A stretch of DNA of 32,084 bases from a virus. Taxonomy: Duplodnaviria; Heunggongvirae; Uroviricota; Caudoviricetes. Position 1 is the stretch's first letter, and every line of letters begins with the position of its first letter. The DNA lies in IMG/VR virus record IMGVR_UViG_2802429222_000004. One strand, given 5' to 3'. The notes under the pieces are model-generated. The model was given only the letters and a program-made list of their open reading frames with translations, ran no database searches and had not been told where the DNA came from. The translations under genes were made by a program, and so were the position numbers. This document shows, one piece after another, positions 5,845-32,084 of this stretch.

Positions 5845-6170
5845 TTTATATCCATCTAAATCATGATGTTATGATGGCCGTGTGAGTTCTTTTCTGATTG
5901 GGGCTGCGTTCGACGGCTTGAAATGTTGTAAATGCTCATAATCTGGTTTAAAGTGTTTTTATGCCAACGACTAGGAGCATCTCCAGTCATAAATGTTGGC
6001 CTCTACAGGCCTTTATATAGTGTTGCTCTTGTACTGCCTTCTCTTTCGAGAGAAGGTATGTACAAGAAGTAAAGCCTGCGAAGGGAGGGTGTCTGGGGTG
6101 AGGAAAGACTGAGAGTTAAAGCATTCATCTTAGAATCCATTCAACTCAAAAAACAAAAGCTCAGCCAACG
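5845..6170 (+). ncRNA. Putative retron msr-msd non-coding RNA region (boundaries not resolved)
   Basis: About 330 bp of non-coding DNA directly upstream of a retron-sized RT. It contains a 39-nt hairpin at 6028-6066 (stems CTTGTAC/GTACAAG and CCTTCTCT/AGAGAAGG, TTCG loop), a GGCC-TCTACA-GGCC hairpin at 5998-6011, and a -35-like TTGAAA at 5918-5923. Confidence 0.4.
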
Positions 6171-7160
6171 ATGAAACCCCTTAGTCTCGAAAAAGCCTTC
6201 AATATTGCATTCTTCGAAAAAGATTCCTTTCAAAACTTTCTTTCGTTTGAACCATTTCAACAAACTAAATTTATAACCTTTGATGAAAGGTTAATTGCTG
6301 AGCCCACTTCTAAACTAAAAGAGTATCACAAATTCATAAATGAATTTGTTCTTTCATACTTGAAAGTAAATAAGGATGTTGTGTTTTCGTATAGAAAAGG
6401 AAGCAGCACTTATGATGCAGTAAAACTTCACGCCTGTAGTAAGATATTCTTCAATACTGATATTAAAAGCTTTTTCCCATCGATAACTCGTGAATATGCA
6501 CGATCAGTTTTAGTTGATAACTTATCGAACGTTCCCATTTCCGATTTAAATATACACTTGGATAAAATTTTAGATTATATTATTATCGATAATTCGTTGC
6601 CTGTAGGGTTCCCGACATCACCAGCTTTCAGCAATGCATGTTTATATGACTTTGATGTTGAGATGCAGCAATATTGTATTAACCATGAATATATATTCAC
6701 ACGCTATTCAGATGATATTATTATTTCCTCTGAAAATGATGAGGGCTTTGAGAATATTCATTCTGTAGTAAGTGACCTGCTGGGTGAGTTTGGGAAGGGA
6801 CATTTCAAACTAAACTCAGCAAAAACTAAATTGATTAAAAAAGGCAGTAAGATTAAGCTGCTGGGGATGGTTATTTTACCGTCTCAGATAGTCTCTGTTG
6901 ATATTAAAATAAAAAGAAAGCTTGAGCATTTGATTCATTTTTATGTAACGGATAAAGATAAATTTATAGATTCTATAATAAAAGATCCTAAGGTTAAAAC
7001 TAGCGGATTGAATGATAGTGAGATCTTGGAAAAGGGCGTTAATACAGTTTCTGGTCTTTTGAATCATATAAACACAATTGATAAGAGTTATCTCGATAAG
7101 CTAAAGAGAAAATACGGAAATACGATTGTCGATATGCTTTTTTACAAGAATGTAAATTAA
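6171..7160 (+). CDS. Reverse transcriptase, retron-type size (329 aa)
   Basis: RT motifs read directly: TDIKSFFPSI (domain 1/2), LPVGFPTSPAFSNACL (domain 4), and catalytic YSDD within IFTRYSDDIIIS (nt 6705-6716). Low GC compared with the flanking phage genes. Confidence 0.8.
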   Translation: MKPLSLEKAFNIAFFEKDSFQNFLSFEPFQQTKFITFDERLIAEPTSKLKEYHKFINEFVLSYLKVNKDVVFSYRKGSSTYDAVKLHACSKIFFNTDIKSFFPSITREYARSVLVDNLSNVPISDLNIHLDKILDYIIIDNSLPVGFPTSPAFSNACLYDFDVEMQQYCINHEYIFTRYSDDIIISSENDEGFENIHSVVSDLLGEFGKGHFKLNSAKTKLIKKGSKIKLLGMVILPSQIVSVDIKIKRKLEHLIHFYVTDKDKFIDSIIKDPKVKTSGLNDSEILEKGVNTVSGLLNHINTIDKSYLDKLKRKYGNTIVDMLFYKNVN

Positions 7161-7161
7161 A

Positions 7162-8514
7162 ATGAAAATAAACATTGAGATCTCGAAAATCCAGCATGTT
7201 GAACATATGTCATTTGCTATTGATCTTTCTGAAAATAAACTGACTTGCATTGTAGGAAAGAACGGTGCTGGAAAGACAACGCTAATCAAAGCAATTAAAA
7301 ATTTACAATCAGCAGATACATTCATAAAGACATCTTCTAGATATATATTCAATCCTGACAGTAGTATAGTATATAATATTAATGATCAAGATATAGTATA
7401 TGTCTATGATGAGAATTTGAAGGTAATAGATACTAAGCAAATAATTCCAGCAGATATAAAATCCAATCTTTATGTCGAGTTGCCCATTCCTCATGGAATG
7501 AGGTTCAATAACTTCCCAACACTTAGTAAAATTGATACTGAACTTAGAAAAAGTATTGCGTTTGAAAGCTATAGCGTTCCCGAGGATTTGATAAATATAC
7601 TCAATGAGGTATATCAGTCTTCTTCTTACAATAATCTTAAAGCATTTTCTGTAAAAAATGAAATTTTCTATTTCAGATTGAATGAGAACGGAACATACAT
7701 AAGGGAGGATTACTTTAGCTCGGGTGAGTATTTTATTTTGAATTTATTTAGAATGATTGAGCTCAAAAGAAAATTCATTGTCATAGATGAGATAGATATA
7801 TCACTAGACTCTTCGGCGCAAGTCCATCTTATAGCAGTGCTAAGGAAATATTGTCAGAGACACTCGGTGAATATTGTATTCACAACACATTCACTTGCTT
7901 TAATGCAAACGCTGAATGATGATGAATTGTACTATATGTGCGAAGGTGATGCTGGAACTACAATTACAAATCGATCATATAATTATATAAAAAGTACGCT
8001 TTTTGGATTTAAAGGATGGGATAAGTACATTCTTACTGAAGATGAAGTTCTGCAAAATTTCTTAGAATATATAATTAATGCTCCTGGGAGTGATTACTTC
8101 TACGAATATAAAATAATATATGTTGGTGGAGGAACTAATGTCATTGATTTAATGCGTCGTAATGAGAGAGAGAGCTTTCTCACGACTCAACAGAATGTGA
8201 TCTCAGTGTTAGACGGAGATCAATTAGGTCAAAGGCATGCTCGAGGTGAAAATATTTTATGCATACCTTTCCAAAGCGTTGAGAAGGATTTCTATCAAGC
8301 ATACGGCCAAGATGAATCGATCCCGAGAGTTACAACTAGAGGTAACGATAAACTTGATAAGCAAGTTTATCGAGGGGTAGTGAAAACCTATGACAACGGT
8401 TGGGATGAAACTAGGATTTTTGAATACCTTGAGAGGTTAAAGCCTGATGAATGTGAGGCTTTCAGGCAAAAAATTAGAGCATTTCTCCAAAGAAATATTT
8501 CGGCAGAGGGTTGA
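7162..8514 (+). CDS. OLD-family ABC ATPase with C-terminal TOPRIM-like domain (450 aa)
   Basis: Walker A GKNGAGKTT (nt 7255-7281), signature-like FSSGEY, Walker B FIVIDEID, H-loop TTHSLA. The C-terminal half has TOPRIM-like motifs YILTEDE, VGGGTN and VLDGDQ. The start is 2 nt after the RT stop, so the two are one operon. Confidence 0.75.
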   Translation: MKINIEISKIQHVEHMSFAIDLSENKLTCIVGKNGAGKTTLIKAIKNLQSADTFIKTSSRYIFNPDSSIVYNINDQDIVYVYDENLKVIDTKQIIPADIKSNLYVELPIPHGMRFNNFPTLSKIDTELRKSIAFESYSVPEDLINILNEVYQSSSYNNLKAFSVKNEIFYFRLNENGTYIREDYFSSGEYFILNLFRMIELKRKFIVIDEIDISLDSSAQVHLIAVLRKYCQRHSVNIVFTTHSLALMQTLNDDELYYMCEGDAGTTITNRSYNYIKSTLFGFKGWDKYILTEDEVLQNFLEYIINAPGSDYFYEYKIIYVGGGTNVIDLMRRNERESFLTTQQNVISVLDGDQLGQRHARGENILCIPFQSVEKDFYQAYGQDESIPRVTTRGNDKLDKQVYRGVVKTYDNGWDETRIFEYLERLKPDECEAFRQKIRAFLQRNISAEG

Positions 8515-20517: not shown

Positions 20518-23136
20518 ATGAGCACGAAATTTAAAACCGTTATCACTACTGCCGGAGCCGCAAAGCTGGCAGCCGCCACTGTCCCCGGCGGGAAAAAAGT
20601 AAACCTGTCTGCAATGGCCGTGGGTGATGGTAATGGCAAATTGCCGGTGCCGGATACCGGTCAGACGAAGCTGGTGCATGAGGTCTGGCGTCATGCCCTG
20701 AATAAAGTCAGCGTGGATAATAAGAATAAAAACTATATCGTGGCTGAACTGGTTGTTCCGCCAGAAGTGGGCGGCTTCTGGATGCGTGAGCTTGGTCTGT
20801 ATGACGATGCCGGAACACTGATTGCGGTATCCAACATGGCAGAAAGCTATAAGCCTGAACTCGCTGAAGGCTCCGGGCGTGCGCAGACCTGCCGCATGGT
20901 TATTATTGTCAGTAACGTGGCGTCCGTTGAGCTGAGTATTGATGCCAGCACGGTGATGGCGACGCAGGATTACGTCGATGACAAAATCGCAGAGCATGAG
21001 CAGTCCCGCCGCCATCCTGACGCCACACTGACAGAAAAAGGCTTTACTCAGTTAAGCAGCACAACAAACAGCACCAGTGAAAAGCTGGCGGCAACGCCAA
21101 AGGCAGTAAAAGCAGCCTATGACAATGCTGAGAAACGTCTGCAGAAAGACCAGAACGGTGGCGATATTCCAGATAAGGGCGCTTTTCTGGACAATGTTGG
21201 CGTTACCAGCCTGACGTTTATGAAAAACAACGGCGAAATGCCGGTTGATGCTGATCTGAATACATTTGGTCCCGTTAAAGCTTATCTGGGTACATGGTCA
21301 AAAGGCACTTCGACTAATGCACAGATAGCCAAACACTTCCCGGAAGAGAATGCCGTTGGTGTCCTGGAAGTATTTGCAGCAGGAAATTTTAACGGAACAC
21401 AGCGTTACACTGTTCGCAATGGAAATACTTATATTCGCCACCTGACGGCTAAATGGAACGGCAAAGATGGTCCGTGGAGCGTATGGCGTAACGTTCAGGG
21501 GACGGCCAGAACGCTGGATGACAGTATGGATCTCGATTTTCTGGCCGGGGAGGATAACCTGGGTACATGGAGAAACAGTTCCAGTACGTTAGCTTCTCTT
21601 GCGTTGCACTATCCCGAAGCTGGTAGTTACGCGCAGGGAGTGCTTGAAGTTATGAAAGGTGGTGGATTCAGTTATACCCAGCGTTATACCACTCGCCGTG
21701 GGAACATGTATGTCCGCTGCCTTGCTGCAAACTGGGATGCATCAAACCCACAGTGGGAACCGTGGCTGAGAATTGGCAGCCAGACTGCAAGCAGCTTTTA
21801 TGACGGTGATTTGAATGATCTAACCGACCCTGGTATTTACAGTGTGACGGGTAAAGCAACCAATGGTCCATTGCTGGATTCATCTGGTGCAACACTACTA
21901 GGGGTGTTAGAGGTTATCAGACGTTTTGATTACGTTGCTGTATTGCAACGCTATACCACTACAGGGACAGGAACGACAACGAAAGGTCGCACGTTTGAGC
22001 GCGTCTATACCGGCAGTTCGTGGAGCGAATGGCGGGAAGTCTACACCTCGTATTCACTTCCCCTGAATCTGGGTATCGGCGGTGCTGTGGCAAAGCTCAC
22101 TAGCCTGGACTGGCAGACCTACGACTTTGTGCCGGGCAGTCTGATAACCGTTCGGCTTGATAACATGACCAACATTCCCGACGGTATGGACTGGGGCGTC
22201 ATTGATGGCAACCTGATAAACATCGCAGTTGGTCCGAGTGATGATTCCGGTACGGGGCGCTCAATGCATGTATGGCGCAGCACTGTAAGTAAAGCGAACT
22301 ACCGCTTTTTTATGGTGCGTATTTCAGGAAATCCGGGAAGCCGCACGATCACGACAAGACGTGTGCCAATTATTGACGAAGCTCAGACATGGGCGGCGAA
22401 ACAGACATTCAGCGGTGGTCTTTCAGGCGAACTGTCCGGCAATGCGGCTACAGCAACAAAGCTGAAAACGGCAAGGACAATTAACGGCGTAAAATTTGAC
22501 GGCTCGGCAAATATTGAAGCGTTTCCGCCAGGTGTTCCGCTGCCGTGGCCATCAGATACACCACCTGCAGGCTATGCAATTATGCAGGGGCAGACGTTTG
22601 ATAAGGCAGCATATCCGAAACTGGCTATAGCCTATCCTTCTGGTGTTATTCCGGATATGCGCGGTTGGACAATCAAGGGCAAACCCGCCAGTGGGCGTGC
22701 TGTATTGTCACAGGAACAGGACGGGATTAAATCGCATACTCACAGCGCCAGTGCGTCAAATACGGATTTGGGAACGAAAACAACCAGTTCGTTTGATTAC
22801 GGGACGAAGACAGTCAGTACGTTTAACTACGGAACAAAAACCACTAATACCACTGGTAACCATACACATACCATTTACAGAGGGAATGCCAATACTAATG
22901 GTGAAACCGGTAAAACAGGCTTTGACAACCCATCGTTTAATGGCACATCAGGAGCTGCCGGGAATCATGCCCACACGGTAGATATTGGTGCACATAATCA
23001 TACGGTTGGTATTGGTGCACATTCACACACGGTTGCTATTGGCTCACACGGGCACTCTATTACCGTTAATGCTACAGGTAATACAGAAAACACCGTCAAA
23101 AACATCGCATTTAACTATATTGTGAGGCTTGCATAA
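20518..23136 (+). CDS. H: Tail fibre protein H (872 aa, mosaic extended C-terminus)
   Basis: The N-terminus ([24 protein letters not shown]...) is the conserved P2 H-type baseplate-attachment domain. The C-terminal part is longer than P2 H (669 aa) and ends in GTKT and HxHT repeats. Confidence 0.85.
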
Positions 23137-25049: not shown

Positions 25050-25568
25050 ATGGCAATGCCGCGCAAACTCAAATACATGAATGTCTTTCTGAACGGCTAC
25101 AGCTATCAGGGCGTTGCAACGTCCGTCACGCTGCCAAAACTGACCCGTAAGCTCGAAAATTATCGCGGTGCGGGGATGAACGGCAGCGCACCGGTAGACC
25201 TCGGCCTTGATGACGATGCGCTGTCAATGGAGTGGTCGCTCGGGGGGTTCCCGGATTCGGTTATCTGGGAGCTTTACGCTGCAACCAGTGTTGATGCCGT
25301 ACCGATTCGTTTTGCTGGTTCTTACCAGCGCGACGATACCGGCGAAACGGTGGCCGTCGAAGTGGTCATGCGTGGGCGTCAGAAAGAAGTCGACACCGGA
25401 GAGGGTAAACAGGGAGAGGATACCGAATCGAAACTCCCGGTGATTTGTACTTATTTCAAGTTGACGATGGACGGTAAGGAGCTGGTCGAAATCGACACCA
25501 TCAACATGATTGAGAAGGTGAACGGCGTCGACCGGCTGGAGCAACACCGCCGTAATATCGGCCTGTGA
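25050..25568 (+). CDS. FII: Tail tube protein FII (172 aa)
   Basis: 172 aa, matching P2 FII. Confidence 0.9.
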   Translation: MAMPRKLKYMNVFLNGYSYQGVATSVTLPKLTRKLENYRGAGMNGSAPVDLGLDDDALSMEWSLGGFPDSVIWELYAATSVDAVPIRFAGSYQRDDTGETVAVEVVMRGRQKEVDTGEGKQGEDTESKLPVICTYFKLTMDGKELVEIDTINMIEKVNGVDRLEQHRRNIGL

Positions 25569-25624: not shown

Positions 25625-25900
25625 ATGAACAAAGAAAATGTGATTACCCTGGACAATCCGGTCAAGCGTGGTGAGCAGGTTATCGAACAGGTCACGCTGA
25701 TGAAACCCAATGCCGGGACGCTGCGCGGTGTCAGTCTGGCAGCGGTCGCGAACTCCGAAGTCGATGCACTGATTAAGGTGCTGCCGCGCATGACGGCACC
25801 GATGCTGACCGAGCAGGAAGTCGCCGCGCTGGAACTGCCTGACCTTGTGGCGCTGGCCGGTAAGGTGGTCGGTTTTTTGTCGCCGAACTCGGTGCAGTAA
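25625..25900 (+). CDS. E: Tail assembly chaperone E (91 aa), with an E+E' frameshift product extending to 26052
   Basis: 91 aa as in P2 E. The slippery run TTTTTTG at 25873-25879 lies near the 3' end, and the -1 frame stays open to the TAA at 26050-26052. Confidence 0.85.
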   Translation: MNKENVITLDNPVKRGEQVIEQVTLMKPNAGTLRGVSLAAVANSEVDALIKVLPRMTAPMLTEQEVAALELPDLVALAGKVVGFLSPNSVQ

Positions 25901-26044
25901 CGTTTCCGAAAAATCTCTCGGTCGATGACCTGATGGCGGATGTGGCAGTGATATTTCACTGGCCGCCATCAGAACTGTATCCCATGAGCCTGACCGAACT
26001 CATCACATGGCGAGAAAAGGCGCTCCGGCGAAGCGGAAACACGA

Positions 26045-28492
26045 ATGAGTAACAATGTAAAATTACAGGTATTGCTCAGGGCTGTTGACCAGGCATCCCG
26101 CCCGTTTAAATCCATCCGCACAGCGAGTAAGTCGCTGTCGGGGGATATCCGGGAAACACAAAAATCACTGCGCGAGCTGAACGGTCACGCATCCCGTATT
26201 GAGGGATTCCGCAAGACCAGTGCACAGCTCGCCGTGACTGGTCATGCACTTGAAAAGGCTCGGCAGGAAGCCGAAGCCCTTGCCACACAGTTTAAAAACA
26301 CCGAACGTCCGACCCGTGCTCAGGCGAAAGTGCTGGAATCCGCAAAGCGTGCGGCGGAGGACTTACAGGCGAAATATAACCGCCTGACGGATTCCGTTAA
26401 ACGCCAGCAGCGGGAACTGGCCGCTGTGGGAATTAATACCCGCAATCTTGCACATGATGAGCAGGGACTGAAAAACCGTATCAGTGAAACCACCGCACAG
26501 CTTAACCGGCAGCGTGACGCGCTGGCGCGTGTCAGTGCGCAACAGGCAAAACTTAACGCAGTCAAACAGCGTTATCAGGCCGGCAAGGAACTGGCCGGAA
26601 ATATGGCCTCAGTGGGCGCTGCCGGTGTGGGGATTGCGGCGGCGGGAACGATGGCCGGAGTTAAGCTGCTGATGCCCGGTTATGAGTTTGCGCAGAAAAA
26701 CTCAGAATTACAGGCTGTGCTCGGAGTGGCAAAAGACTCCGCCGAAATGGCCGCGCTCCGCAAACAGGCGCGCCAGCTCGGCGACAACACCGCCGCCTCG
26801 GCGGATGATGCAGCCGGTGCGCAGATTATCATTGCGAAAGCCGGTGGGGATGTTGATGCCATTCAGGCGGCAACGCCGGTCACGCTGAATATGGCGCTGG
26901 CGAACCGTCGCACGATGGAAGAAAACGCCGCCCTGTTGATGGGGATGAAATCCGCCTTTCAGCTTTCAAACGATAAGGTCGCTCATATCGGGGATGTTCT
27001 CTCCATGACGATGAACAAAACCGCCGCCGATTTTGACGGCATGAGCGATGCGCTGACCTATGCCGCACCTGTGGCAAAAAATGCCGGTGTCAGCATTGAA
27101 GAAACCGCCGCAATGGTCGGGGCGCTGCATGATGCAAAAATCACAGGCTCAATGGCGGGGACGGGAAGCCGTGCCGTGTTAAGTCGCCTGCAGGCACCAA
27201 CGGGAAAAGCATGGGATGCACTCAAAGAGCTTGGCGTAAAAACCTCAGACAGTAAGGGGAATACCCGACCAGTATTTACCATTCTGAAAGAAATGCAGGC
27301 CAGTTTTGAGAAAAACCGGCTCGGTACTGCCCAGCAGGCTGAATACATGAAAACCATTTTCGGGGAGGAGGCCAGCTCAGCCGCCGCCGTGCTGATGACT
27401 GCCGCCTCAACCGGAAAGCTGGACAAACTGACCGCTGCGTTTAAAGCCTCAGACGGGAAGACCGCCGAGCTGGTAAATATCATGCAGGACAACCTCGGCG
27501 GTGACTTTAAAGAGTTTCAGTCCGCTTATGAGGCGGTGGGGACTGACCTGTTTGACCAGCAGGAAGGCGCACTGCGTAAGCTCACGCAGACGGCCACAAA
27601 GTATGTGTTAAAACTCGACGGCTGGATCCAGAAAAACAAATCACTGGCGTCAACCATCGGCCTCATTGCCGGTGGCGCACTGGCGCTTACTGGCATCATC
27701 GGTGCCATTGGTCTTGTAGCCTGGCCGGTTATCACCGGCATCAATGCCATCATTGCTGCAGCAGGCGCAATGGGGGCAATTTTCACGACGGTTGGCAGTG
27801 CCGTTATGACGGCCATCGGGGCGATTAGCTGGCCGGTAGTGGCCGTGGTGGCCGCCATTGTCGCCGGAGCGTTACTTATCCGTAAATACTGGGAGCCTGT
27901 CAGCGCATTCTTTGGCGGTGTGGTGGAAGGGCTGAAAGCGGCATTTGCGCCGGTGGGAGAACTGTTCACGCCACTTAAGCCGGTGTTTGACTGGCTGGGT
28001 GAAAAGTTACAGGCTGCGTGGCAGTGGTTTAAAAACCTGATTGCCCCGGTCAAAGCCACCCAGGACACCCTGAACCGTTGCCGTGACACGGGCGTCATGT
28101 TCGGGCAGGCACTGGCTGACGCGCTGATGCTGCCGCTTAATGCGTTCAACAAATTACGCAGCGGCATTGACTGGGTACTGGAAAAGCTCGGGTTCATCAA
28201 CAAAGAGTCAGACACACTTGACCAGACAGCCGCCAGAACTCATGCCGCCACGTATGGCACCGGTGGTTATATTCCGGCGACCAGCTCTTATGCAGGTTAT
28301 CAGGCTTATCAGCCGGTTACGGCACCGGCTGGCCGCTCTTATGTGGACCAGAGTAAAAACGAATATCACATCAGCCTGACGGGTGGTACTGCGCCGGGGA
28401 CACAGCTTGACCGCCAGTTACAGGATGCGCTCGAAAAATACGAGCGGGATAAACGTGCGCGCGCCCGTGCCAGCATGATGCATGACGGTTAA
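26045..28492 (+). CDS. T: Tail tape measure protein T (815 aa)
   Basis: 815 aa, matching P2 T. Coiled-coil N-terminal part, Gly/Ala-rich hydrophobic central segment. Confidence 0.9.
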   Translation: MSNNVKLQVLLRAVDQASRPFKSIRTASKSLSGDIRETQKSLRELNGHASRIEGFRKTSAQLAVTGHALEKARQEAEALATQFKNTERPTRAQAKVLESAKRAAEDLQAKYNRLTDSVKRQQRELAAVGINTRNLAHDEQGLKNRISETTAQLNRQRDALARVSAQQAKLNAVKQRYQAGKELAGNMASVGAAGVGIAAAGTMAGVKLLMPGYEFAQKNSELQAVLGVAKDSAEMAALRKQARQLGDNTAASADDAAGAQIIIAKAGGDVDAIQAATPVTLNMALANRRTMEENAALLMGMKSAFQLSNDKVAHIGDVLSMTMNKTAADFDGMSDALTYAAPVAKNAGVSIEETAAMVGALHDAKITGSMAGTGSRAVLSRLQAPTGKAWDALKELGVKTSDSKGNTRPVFTILKEMQASFEKNRLGTAQQAEYMKTIFGEEASSAAAVLMTAASTGKLDKLTAAFKASDGKTAELVNIMQDNLGGDFKEFQSAYEAVGTDLFDQQEGALRKLTQTATKYVLKLDGWIQKNKSLASTIGLIAGGALALTGIIGAIGLVAWPVITGINAIIAAAGAMGAIFTTVGSAVMTAIGAISWPVVAVVAAIVAGALLIRKYWEPVSAFFGGVVEGLKAAFAPVGELFTPLKPVFDWLGEKLQAAWQWFKNLIAPVKATQDTLNRCRDTGVMFGQALADALMLPLNAFNKLRSGIDWVLEKLGFINKESDTLDQTAARTHAATYGTGGYIPATSSYAGYQAYQPVTAPAGRSYVDQSKNEYHISLTGGTAPGTQLDRQLQDALEKYERDKRARARASMMHDG

Positions 28493-30149: not shown

Positions 30150-30230
30150 TGATTTATATTTATCTGTTTGTTTTATAAGGATAAGTTAACTAAAATGGCA
30201 CCATCAACAAAACCGGAAGAGGTGCTCGCG

Positions 30231-30449
30231 ATGTTTCATTGTCCTTTATGCCAGCATGCCGCACATGCGCGTACAAGCCGCTATATCACTGACACGACAA
30301 AAGAGCGTTATCACCAGTGCCAGAACGTGAATTGCAGCGCCACGTTCATCACTTATGAGTCGGTACAGAGATACATCGTGAAGCCGGGAGAAGTCCACGC
30401 CGTAAGGCCGCACCCGTTGCCATCAGGGCAGCAAATTATGTGGATGTAA
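30231..30449 (+). CDS. ogr: Late gene transcriptional activator Ogr (zinc finger, 72 aa)
   Basis: The internal ATG at 30231 gives MFHCPLCQHAAHARTSRYITDTTKERYHQCQNVNCSATF..., the Ogr C2C2 zinc-finger protein, 72 aa (track ORF 30168..30449). Confidence 0.9.
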   Translation: MFHCPLCQHAAHARTSRYITDTTKERYHQCQNVNCSATFITYESVQRYIVKPGEVHAVRPHPLPSGQQIMWM

Positions 30450-30550: not shown

Positions 30551-30637
30551 AAAAAATAAGCCCGTGTAAGGGAGATTACACAGGCTAAGGAGGTGGTTCC
30601 TGGTACAGCTAGCATTTTATGGGTTATGTTTTTCAGC
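30551..30637 (-). ncRNA. cyaR: CyaR (RyeE) Hfq-dependent sRNA
   Basis: The reverse complement reads GCTGAAAAACATAACCCATAAAATGCTAGCTGTACCAGGAACCACCTCCTTAGCCTGTGTAATCTCCCTTACACGGGCTTATTTTTT, matching the E. coli CyaR sequence as I recall it. The terminator hairpin plus U-tract forms its 3' end. Confidence 0.75.
30552..30578. other. attR core (P2 att core AAAAAATAAGCCCGTGTAAGGGAGATT)
   Basis: Exact 27-bp match to the P2 attachment core as I recall it. Lies between the ogr terminator and host DNA and overlaps the 3' end of cyaR. Confidence 0.75.
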
Positions 30638-30639
30638 GA

Positions 30640-30722: not shown

Positions 30723-32084
30723 TCACTTACCGTGCGGGTTACGCGTGGTTTCCCCGGAGAAATTACGCATCAGCAGTGCGTAATTCAGCTCGAGATCCTG
30801 CGGAACCGGGAGCCACACGGTATAGCCATCGCCAGGCGCGACCGGCATCGCTTCACCTTTGGCGTTTTCCATGTGCTCAAGGGTAAAGTTGATATTGCCC
30901 TGTGGCGTCATCAGTTCCAGGCTGTCGCCAACGGAGAATTTATTTTTCACCGCTACGGCTGCCAGAGAGCCTTTACGCTCACCGGTAAACTCTCCAACAA
31001 ACTGCTGGCGGTCAGAAACGGAATAACCGTATTCGTAGTTCTGGTAATCGTCGTGAGTATGACGACGCAGGAAACCTTCGGTGTAACCACGATGCGCCAG
31101 GCCTTCCAGTGTTTCCAGCAGGCTGGTGTCGAACGGTTTGCCCGCAGCGGCGTCATCGATAGCTTTACGATAAACCTGCGCGGTACGTGCACAATAGTAG
31201 AAAGATTTAGTGCGGCCTTCGATTTTCAGCGAATGCACGCCCATTTTGGTCAGGCGTTCAACATGGGCGATGGCGCGCAGATCTTTCGAGTTCATGATGT
31301 AAGTGCCGTGCTCATCTTCAAACGCGGTCATATACTCGCCCGGGCGCTGGGCTTCTTCGATCATAAACACTTTGTCGGTTGGCGCACCGATACCCAGCGT
31401 CGGCTCGACGTTTTGCACCGGAATCGGCTCGTATTTGTGTACGATGTTGCCAACGTCATCTTCTTTCCCTTCCTGCACGTTGTACTCCCAACGGCAGGCG
31501 TTGGTGCAGGTGCCCTGGTTTGGATCGCGTTTGTTGATGTAGCCAGAGAGCAGGCAGCGGCCGGAGTAGGCCATGCACAGCGCGCCGTGAACGAAGATTT
31601 CAAGCTCCATATCCGGAACCTGATTGCGGATCTCTTCAATCTCTTCCAGCGACAGCTCGCGGGAGAGGATCACGCGGGTCAACCCCATTTGCTGCCAGAA
31701 TTTCACCGTCGCCCAGTTTACGGCGTTGGCCTGCACGGAAAGGTGGATCGGCATTTCAGGGAAGTGTTCACGCACCAGCATAATCAGCCCCGGATCGGAC
31801 ATAATCAGTGCGTCCGGCCCCATTTCCACCACCGGTTTCAGATCACGGATAAAGGTTTTTAGCTTGGCATTGTGTGGCGCAATGTTGACCACGACATAAA
31901 ACTTTTTCCCCAGCGCGTGGGCTTCATTGATGCCGAGCTGGAGATTTTCGTGGTTAAATTCGTTGTTGCGCACACGCAGGGAGTAACGCGGTTGCCCCGC
32001 ATAAACAGCATCTGCGCCATAAGCGAAAGCGTAACGCATATTTTTCAGCGTTCCCGCCGGGGAAAGGAGTTCCGGTTTAAACAT
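30723..32084 (-). CDS. yegQ: U32-family peptidase-like protein YegQ (453 aa)
   Basis: A complete 453-aa ORF ending at the window edge. The sequence (MFKPELLSPAGTLKNMRYAFAYGADAVYAGQPRYSLRVRNNEF...) is the U32 family protein encoded next to cyaR in E. coli. Confidence 0.85.
   Translation of the reverse strand: MFKPELLSPAGTLKNMRYAFAYGADAVYAGQPRYSLRVRNNEFNHENLQLGINEAHALGKKFYVVVNIAPHNAKLKTFIRDLKPVVEMGPDALIMSDPGLIMLVREHFPEMPIHLSVQANAVNWATVKFWQQMGLTRVILSRELSLEEIEEIRNQVPDMELEIFVHGALCMAYSGRCLLSGYINKRDPNQGTCTNACRWEYNVQEGKEDDVGNIVHKYEPIPVQNVEPTLGIGAPTDKVFMIEEAQRPGEYMTAFEDEHGTYIMNSKDLRAIAHVERLTKMGVHSLKIEGRTKSFYYCARTAQVYRKAIDDAAAGKPFDTSLLETLEGLAHRGYTEGFLRRHTHDDYQNYEYGYSVSDRQQFVGEFTGERKGSLAAVAVKNKFSVGDSLELMTPQGNINFTLEHMENAKGEAMPVAPGDGYTVWLPVPQDLELNYALLMRNFSGETTRNPHGK

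Follow-up and report, generated by a model that had tools for sequence, protein, structure and literature searches.

In phage P2, a -1 shift at the heptamer TTTTTTG yields two products, the 91-aa E and the 142-aa E+E′ (PMC3091744). A parallel case is the G/GT frameshift of lambda, which also precedes the tape measure gene, and the efficiency in P2-type phages is reported to be 2-3 times lambda's (PMC5009743). In lambda, the shift occurs near the 3′ end of a small gene that has the major tail (tube) gene on one side and the tape measure gene on the other; it is a -1 slip on G_GGA_AAG at roughly 1:30, the fusion is a fixed minority, and tail assembly requires both products, neither of which is found in virions (PMC5009743). 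The P2 record (NC_001895) labels both E products "essential tail protein" and describes E+E′ with the words "-1 frameshift" and "shares amino terminus with gpE". The E. coli dnaX and IS911/IS3 cassettes likewise rely on tandem slippage on an X_XXY_YYZ heptamer, and they pair a strong A_AAA_AAG with two further parts, a Shine-Dalgarno (SD)-like element lying 9-14 nt before it and, on the 3′ side, a hairpin or pseudoknot. Such 3′ structures lie about 5-9 nt behind the heptamer. The SD spacing rules are 9-14 nt for stimulation of -1 shifting and 3 nt for +1 shifting. The tail-chaperone frameshift of the lambda G/GT type is said to have been described by Xu, Hendrix and Duda in 2004 as conserved in long-tailed phages, and E′ of P2 is reportedly essential, according to Christie et al. 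in 2002.

We analyzed a 32,084-nt stretch of prophage DNA (the window) that carries a locus of this kind; all features below are on the plus strand. Gene E (25625..25900) lies between the tail tube gene FII upstream (25050..25568; PF04985 Phage_tube, E = 2.1e-60; called FII in the P2 and L-413C records) and the tape measure gene T (26045..28492; PF10145, E = 1.8e-45; TIGR01760, E = 6.5e-105). Its zero-frame product, a 91-aa tail assembly chaperone, ends in ...GKVVGFLSPNSVQ at the TAA 25898-25900. Six codons before this stop, inside the overlap of both frames, is the slippery heptamer TTTTTTG (25873..25879), and here the letters agree with a first-pass annotation of the region. That annotation had spaced the codons as G GTT TTT TGT, which is an unused frame. 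The zero frame reads GGT TTT TTG (Gly83 Phe84 Leu85), giving the canonical X_XXY_YYZ register T_TTT_TTG with the Phe84 codon in the P site and the Leu85 codon in the A site. Read from 25873, the -1 frame is FF followed by VAELGAVTFPKNLSVDDLMADVAVIFHWPPSELYPMSLTELITWREKALRRSGNTNE and a stop. Re-translation reproduced the 57 open codons described earlier: the E′ extension (25879..26052) has its codons at 25879-26049 and ends with the TAA 26050-26052. The composite E+E′ coding region (25625..26052) encodes 85 + 57 = 142 aa, matching the approximate size proposed for the fusion. The E′ stop had also been said to overlap the start codon of T. At the junction, ATGAGTAA, the two reading frames do overlap by 8 nt, but T starts at ATG 26045-26047 and the TAA is 2 nt further on.

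The 1.7 kb of DNA from FII to T shares 96.6-97.6% identity with P2-group phages, and the P2 and L-413C records hold E, E+E′, and T in the same arrangement. The E and E+E′ genes of the P2 FETUD tail operon (NP_046781.1/NP_046780.1, UniProt O64312) are the same genes as those found here, with the same heptamer, register, 91- and 142-aa products, junction with T, and FII and T flanks. In the comparison with the P2 site that the first-pass annotation had proposed, the heptamer was invariant in a three-way alignment with P2 and L-413C. The genes differ by just a few substitutions. In E, a single amino acid has changed (S29 in P2, N29 here), and E′ is the same in both phages; where this prophage ends E with TAA, P2 has TGA, a change that is synonymous in the E′ frame (GTA/GTG, Val). 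The identity to the P2 group, the annotated homologous site, and a PF06528 match seen only in the fusion bear out the earlier proposal of a programmed -1 frameshift that gives E+E′. We consider that the site is very probably a programmed -1 ribosomal frameshift of a P2-type tail assembly chaperone gene, and we found no evidence that speaks against this. Both genes, the site, and its function were already established in P2, a phage nearly identical to this prophage, so the call is correct but ordinary and biologically nothing new. For this prophage, we computed the sequence anatomy, both family memberships, the -1 coding signature, and the conserved arrangement; that the fusion would be made by a -1 shift is carried over from the literature and the records of near-identical P2. 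The locus is unlike lambda G/GT in that sequence similarity to E/E′ is undetectable, the Pfam family is different, the heptamer is T_TTT_TTG, and the tail is contractile (sheath and tube), whereas lambda's is of the siphovirus type. Mannheimia 587AP1, a deep relative in the E/E′ family, uses lambda's G_GGA_AAG.

E matches PF10109 Phage_TAC_7, a tail assembly chaperone family, over residues 7-85 (47 bits; gathering cut-off, 25 bits) and phrog_103 (tail protein; E = 2.6e-45), and its exact sequence belongs to a 988-member cluster titled "phage tail assembly protein". The PF06528 "Phage P2 GpE" match covers fusion residues 104-139 (76.3 bits, E = 1.2e-21; gathering cut-off, 23 bits), and the zero-frame product has no match to this family. 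A model for E or E+E′ was not found in NCBIfam, nor was a relative with a solved structure in a sequence search of the PDB. No Rfam family was found at or near the frameshift site, the sole match in the window being CyaR. All 57 E′ residues are covered by phrog_1756, also a PHROG tail family (E = 1.4e-28). This match bears on the idea that E′ is an independent 39-aa gene starting at ATG 25933, which would require no frameshift. Such a gene would agree with PGAP and several phage records, which annotate a separate ORF of 37-51 aa, and with phrog_6416, which matches E′ residues 19-57 only. However, both the phrog_1756 and the tblastn matches span all 57 residues. The E′ frame opens at 25864 and has no ATG, GTG, or TTG before ATG 25933, and pairing with the anti-SD sequence does not peak just before that codon. 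In the 18 codons between the heptamer and the ATG, the protein sequence is kept while synonymous sites vary (F-P...L-S-V-D-D-L). Furthermore, the P2 record has E+E′ sharing the gpE amino terminus through a -1 frameshift. We regard a separate E′ gene as highly improbable.

A tblastn search with the fused protein returned 424 phage records, 401 of which covered at least 80% of the query at one place; among the matches listed, the match came in two pieces in 56 of 60 rows. E′ is -1 relative to E in all 19 phage loci, each with an in-register heptamer (TTTTTTG in 15; TTTTTTT, TTTTTTC, AAATTTT, and GGGAAAG in the rest), and in 65 of 66 bacterial-species loci (TTTTTTG in 59 and TTTTTTA in 6). Diverged lineages have other in-register slippery heptamers in place of TTTTTTG. 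The codon preceding the P-site codon keeps a T at its third base, though its amino acid varies in deep relatives. In relatives with 74-84% amino acid identity in E′, third codon positions hold 12-14 of the 20-26 differences. The ATGAGT of T is nearly invariant across 50 aligned relatives and is followed by the stop at the same position. The order tube FII, E/E′, tape measure T on one strand, together with the two frames and the heptamer, is kept in relatives, in line with the conserved tail-chaperone arrangement that had been claimed, and the arrangement extends to prophages of Gamma-, Beta-, and Alphaproteobacteria. One could still suppose that a functionless open frame happens to lie beside a chance T-run. 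The window contains 16 copies of TTTTTTG, where 9.4 ± 2.8 would be expected, and from 2.6% of the codon positions in its genes a -1 frame can be read for 57 codons or more. Of all in-register heptamers in those genes of the window that are likely to be real, only that of E lies few codons from the stop and is followed by a long -1 frame. The family matches in the -1 frame (E = 1e-21 to 1e-28), its coding signature at codon positions, and its deep conservation across the three proteobacterial classes led us to dismiss a chance ORF. To judge from the sequences compared, the conservation data have already refuted it, and we give it virtually no credence.

By the preferred reading, a programmed -1 ribosomal frameshift, the majority of ribosomes would stop at the E TAA 25898-25900 and release the 91-aa gpE. 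A minority would slip back one base on T_TTT_TTG while the P site holds tRNA-Phe paired to UUU and the A site holds tRNA-Leu paired to UUG. The two tRNAs would re-pair on UUU UUU, and the next codon would be GUC (25879-25881). The shifted ribosomes would then read 57 codons to the TAA 26050-26052, making a 142-aa gpE+E′ with the expected junction ...GFL/VAELG... (the slash marks the junction). If the analogy with gpG/gpGT of lambda holds, the E portion common to both products may bind gpT, the tape measure protein whose gene follows directly, and the E′ portion may recruit the tail tube protein. Assembly of the tail would need a fixed E to E+E′ ratio, set by the efficiency of the slip, and as in lambda, both gpE and gpE+E′ would be absent from the virion.

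The junction distinguishes possible routes to the fusion. Tandem ribosomal slippage predicts the junction peptide ...VVGFLVAELGAVTFPK; the peptide ...VVGFFVAELGAVTFPK is expected if the P-site tRNA slips before the A site is decoded, or if the slippage is transcriptional. The deposited P2 "Tail assembly protein E′" (NP_046780.1/O64312) carries ...GFL/VAELG..., as for a tandem slip. On exact look-up of this protein, we rejected the junction ...GFF/VAELG... as the ribosomal product, and the same entry led us to reject ...GFL/FAELG..., which follows from the P2 misc_feature coordinate.

Under transcriptional slippage, RNA polymerase would add one U on the T6 run; the resulting U7 mRNAs, a minority, would carry E+E′ as one uninterrupted frame with the junction ...GFF/VAELG.... 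The site is indeed a homopolymer run, ribosomes shift poorly on its heptamer in E. coli reporters (PMC4066793 supplement), and the product length deduced from sequence does not discriminate between the two routes. A hairpin at 25852-25873 (-10.2 kcal/mol) adjoins the T-run in a terminator-like layout. Stem-loops beside short runs can reportedly stimulate slippage by RNA polymerase (Penno et al. in 2015). Against this, the hairpin has a z of about -2, lacks covariation, with 232 of 500 shuffles doing as well, and is missing or different in relatives, and we rejected it as a driver of slippage. In bacteria, the runs on which transcriptional slippage is described as productive have about 9 A or T (PMC5009743); the run here has 6. 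Moreover, the run always keeps the X_XXY_YYZ register, and the A_AAT_TTT and G_GGA_AAG of diverged homologues are canonical, non-homopolymeric tandem-slip heptamers that slippage of RNA polymerase does not explain. This route to the fusion is quite unlikely in our estimate.

How the ribosomal frameshift would reach its efficiency is a further matter. With no stimulator present, U_UUU_UUG shifted at 0.118% in E. coli reporters, and adding the IS3 pseudoknot brought this to 0.765% (PMC4066793 supplement). We considered an unrecognized stimulator because the heptamer alone gives 0.1-0.8% in reporters while P2 is reported to reach several-fold lambda's level. That a P2-type site depends on such an element strikes us as doubtful. 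Folding, covariation, synonymous constraint, and anti-SD pairing around the heptamer revealed no canonical stimulator at the usual distance. In contrast to the dnaX and IS cassettes, the site combines a weak heptamer with an SD-like element only 4 nt upstream and has no conserved 3′ structure at a stimulatory distance; neither a 5′ SD-like element at 9-14 nt nor a close 3′ structure of the stimulated type was found.

The SD-like AAGGTGG (25862..25868), a candidate modulator, is the one nearby element with excess synonymous constraint: at synonymous sites, Lys is AAG in 44 of 44 cases and Val is GTG in 49 of 50, and the neighboring codons vary. Its duplex with the anti-SD sequence is worth -8.4 kcal/mol. 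Across 76 loci, anti-SD pairing peaks at the position of this element (mean of -6.8 versus -1.3 for background), and in deep relatives SD-like sites recur 4-17 nt from the heptamer. The spacing of 4 nt fits neither the +1 nor the -1 rule. A slip by tRNA-Leu in the P site alone, one codon further on, would match this spacing; alternatively, the element may make the ribosome pause.

On the 3′ side, the nearest hairpin has 4 bp and a 2-nt spacer after the heptamer. The region 25880-25980 folds at -38.8 kcal/mol, with z = -3.6 to -3.8 for these 101 nt after the heptamer. Inside E′ there is a 10-bp stem (25930..25972; arms CTGATGGCGG at 25930-25939 and CCGCCATCAG at 25963-25972) that is 96% paired in 50 relatives. 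Two-sided changes occur at one pair only, within one clade, and covariation contributes -0.97 kcal/mol to the alifold energy. The stem has a synonymous entropy of 0.737 versus 0.739 elsewhere in E′ (p = 0.66), and deeper relatives lose or re-register the stem. The stem lies 50 nt from the heptamer, on a near-invariant peptide motif, and shows no excess synonymous constraint; we rejected it as a selected 3′ stimulator. It is probably incidental to that motif, the almost invariant DLMAD...HWPPSE. The one point of broader interest is mechanistic: a heptamer that performs poorly in E. coli reporters would have to attain adequate efficiency with no canonical stimulator.

The recoding event at this locus is usually missed by automatic pipelines. 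In RefSeq PGAP and many phage records it appears as two entries, a "phage tail assembly protein" and a "GpE family" ORF of roughly 39 aa. We found the locus in 1,583 of 5,426 complete E. coli genomes. Database versions of the fusion with the GFF junction stem from assemblies with T7 in the run.

The site is the textbook E/E+E′ recoding site of P2, here in a near-identical prophage, and is already known. Across 1.7 kb, from the tail tube gene FII into the tape measure gene T, the window shares 96.6-97.6% identity with Yersinia phage L-413C, P2, and numerous further Peduovirus records. The L-413C record annotates gpE and gpE+E′ ("-1 frameshift"), and the P2 reference record has entries for E and for E+E′ ([quoted passage not shown]), besides a misc_feature marking the "site of -1 translational frameshift". 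The first-pass annotation had proposed a comparison with the P2 site. A three-way alignment of the window, P2, and L-413C shows no change in or around the heptamer; P2 has an identical E′ and an E that differs by one residue. The E stop codon (25898-25900) is TAA here versus TGA in P2 and L-413C, a change that is synonymous (GTA/GTG, Val) in the E′ frame. The slippery run and the open -1 frame are confirmed, and their interpretation as an E+E′ tail chaperone site is supported.

E occupies 25625-25900 on the plus strand and encodes 91 aa by translation. TTTTTTG was correctly placed at 25873-25879, but the codon spacing first given, G GTT TTT TGT, follows a frame that is not used; the 3′ end of E reads GGT AAG GTG GTC GGT TTT TTG TCG CCG AAC TCG GTG CAG TAA. 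Since the zero frame is GGT TTT TTG (Gly83-Phe84-Leu85), the heptamer T_TTT_TTG is in the canonical X_XXY_YYZ register. From 25879 the -1 frame is open for 57 sense codons, encoding the very peptide originally quoted, and then stops at TAA 26050-26052. This stop was said to overlap the T start codon; because T starts at ATG 26045-26047 (ATGAGTAA), it in fact sits 2 nt past the ATG, and the E′ and T open reading frames share 8 nt. The predicted fusion of about 142 aa agrees with the computed length (85 + 57 = 142 aa). The flanking genes, FII (PF04985) and T (PF10145, TIGR01760), bear out the tail-chaperone arrangement upstream of the tape measure gene.

The bare pattern, TTTTTTG with an open -1 frame, is not beyond chance; context and homology decide. 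TTTTTTG occurs 16 times on both strands of the window versus 9.4 ± 2.8 expected, and within its genes 2.6% of codon positions have a -1 frame that stays open for 57 codons or more. Among the window's likely real genes, judged by reading the heptamer list, E has the sole in-register X_XXY_YYZ heptamer near its stop (6 codons left) with a long -1 frame. The zero-frame E product matches the tail assembly chaperone family PF10109. The fused product also matches PF06528, "Phage P2 GpE" (E = 1.2e-21), with the match confined to the -1 frame, and PHROG tail families cover both halves: phrog_103 for E (2.6e-45) and phrog_1756 for all 57 E′ residues (1.4e-28).

E′ itself bears a coding signature. Compared with four relatives of 74-84% E′ amino acid identity (L003-L006), 12-14 of 20-26 differences in the E′-only stretch fall at third codon positions of the -1 frame. 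From the E stop up to ATG 25933, the first in frame, the protein is kept (F-P, L-S-V-D-D-L) while third positions vary in 50 aligned sequences. We found no ATG, GTG, or TTG in the E′ frame upstream of 25933 and no peak of anti-Shine-Dalgarno (anti-SD) pairing just before this ATG, so the stretch can only be translated by ribosomes entering from E. A coding signature with no upstream start rules out a free-standing E′ gene of about 39 aa, as automatic annotation commonly has it. Most related records, and PGAP in E. coli genomes, annotate it in this way, without a frameshift join. Labels in related records are also inconsistent: FII is called "head closure" in RefSeq phage records, and T is "smc: chromosome partition protein" in one Yersinia phage record and "tail fiber assembly protein" in another.

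A tblastn search with the fused 142-aa query matched 424 of 50,697 phage records, from hosts including Escherichia, Yersinia, Salmonella, Klebsiella, Burkholderia, Ralstonia, Pseudomonas, Vibrio, Mannheimia, and Zymomonas. In 401 of these records, a single place accounts for 80% or more of the query. Among the matches listed, all but four of 60 rows are in two pieces, consistent with two reading frames. In all 19 phage loci fetched to span this host range, E′ is -1 relative to E, with an in-register slippery heptamer within the overlap. TTTTTTG is used in 15; the substitutes are T_TTT_TTT in a Zymomonas element, T_TTT_TTC in Vibrio VP58.5, A_AAT_TTT in Escherichia phage 520873, and G_GGA_AAG in Mannheimia 587AP1, the last being the same as the lambda G-T heptamer. 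We also collected 67 bacterial loci from one-genome-per-species assemblies, 66 of them analysable (one, L084, has no detectable E half). The -1 arrangement is present in 65 of the 66, with TTTTTTG in 59 and TTTTTTA in 6. The lone exception, Enterobacter sp. EA-1, has lost one base of the run (T5), which disrupts both products, and is therefore an assembly error or a decaying prophage. The third-position T of the codon before the heptamer is invariant, while the amino acid there varies among deep relatives. Together with the substitution of other slippery heptamers, this shows that the conserved property is slipperiness itself. Of complete E. coli genomes, 29% carry the E/E+E′ locus.

Tandem -1 slippage on the heptamer has the best support as the mechanism. 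The P site would hold tRNA-Phe on UUU (25874-25876) and the A site tRNA-Leu on UUG (25877-25879); the two tRNAs would slip back by one base and pair again, on UUU UUU, and reading would resume at GUC (25879-25881), giving ...GFL/VAELG.... By exact-sequence look-up, the deposited P2 protein (NP_046780.1, UniProt O64312, "Tail assembly protein E′") has this junction. The alternative ...GFF/VAELG... would result if the P-site tRNA slipped before the A site was decoded, or if the slippage were transcriptional. The database proteins that show it derive from E. coli assemblies carrying T7 (L087-L089), where gene callers output one 142-aa "GpE family" ORF. In two of these three T7 contigs the adjacent genes are broken into fragments as well, a usual sign of homopolymer sequencing errors, which suggests that T7 at the slip site is such an error, not biology. 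A terminator-like hairpin abuts the T-run (25852-25873, -10.2 kcal/mol), but it is not conserved and deep relatives carry nonhomopolymeric heptamers, which makes transcriptional slippage an unlikely main route.

Christie et al. 2002 reportedly found E′ essential by complementation, and the fusion is said to be made at about 10%. The P2 shift at TTTTTTG yields 91- and 142-aa proteins (PMC3091744). In the lambda model, the tape measure protein is bound by the N-terminal part common to both products and the major tail subunit by the part that the frameshift adds, and the virion contains neither product; P2 and its relatives are reported to shift 2-3 times as efficiently as lambda (PMC5009743). 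In E. coli, U_UUU_UUG was measured at 0.118% when unstimulated, at 0.247% in combination with the IS911 stimulators, and at 0.765% when followed by the IS3 pseudoknot (Sharma et al., PMC4066793), far below the reported P2 efficiency. What lifts the efficiency of a weak heptamer is the point of wider interest, and we therefore sought stimulators on either side. The 101 nt 3′ of the heptamer have a computed fold of -38.8 kcal/mol (z = -3.8), driven by a perfect 10-bp plus-strand inverted repeat inside E′ (CTGATGGCGG / CCGCCATCAG, 25930-25939 / 25963-25972). We rejected this stem as a 3′ stimulator. It begins 50 nt from the heptamer, over the conserved peptide DLMAD...HWPPSE; it has one two-sided change, in one clade, with a covariation term of only -0.97 kcal/mol; and it shows no excess synonymous constraint (0.737 versus 0.739 bits, p = 0.66). 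The P2/186-like clade keeps the stem and deeper relatives have it in another register or not at all, so that we regard it as a probable, incidental by-product of the conserved peptide. On the 5′ side, an SD-like AAGGTGG (25862-25868, plus strand; anti-SD duplex, -8.4 kcal/mol) lies 4 nt from the heptamer. In 50 relatives, AAG GTG (25862-25867) is essentially invariant at synonymous positions (44/44; 49/50) and adjacent codons vary freely. Anti-SD pairing potential peaks sharply at AAGGTGG, with a mean of -6.8 versus -1.3 kcal/mol, in 76 nonredundant loci, most of them close relatives. In several deep relatives, the strongest SD-like site of the E gene lies within 25 nt upstream, at variable distance. 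The 4-nt spacing in the P2 clade is outside the known stimulatory distances for +1 (3 nt) and -1 (9-14 nt) shifts; because of this and the closeness of most loci, AAGGTGG is a candidate 5′ stimulator, a lead and not a finding.

Elsewhere, the slot between replication gene A and portal gene Q, a known P2 defence hotspot, holds a two-gene cargo (6171-8514, plus strand). Its PADLOC matches, a reverse transcriptase (RT_I-B, E = 6.5e-110) and ATPase-Toprim_I-B (E = 2e-179), identify it as a predicted type I-B retron antiphage system. By NCBIfam the reverse transcriptase is nearest to the St85 retron family, below that family's cut-off. Rfam gave no msr/msd RNA at the gathering threshold; the retron noncoding RNA presumably lies within 5845-6170. 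At the P2 H position, a tail fibre gene (20518-23136, plus strand) encodes 872 aa, longer than P2 H. GTKT and His-x-His motifs recur in the C-terminal part of the protein (...GNHTHTI...) and resemble metal-binding HxH repeats of phage fibre tips.

The layout is that of a P2 prophage, with the integrase at the left end and D, ogr, CyaR, and a host peptidase-U32 gene at the right. The CyaR/RyeE small RNA (30554-30639, minus strand; RF00112, 100.7 bits) lies between the prophage gene ogr (30168-30449, plus strand) and the yegQ-like peptidase gene (30723-32084, minus strand) and marks the right-hand prophage/host junction. Both edges of the window are exact, the first base falling at the integrase stop codon and the last at the peptidase start codon.
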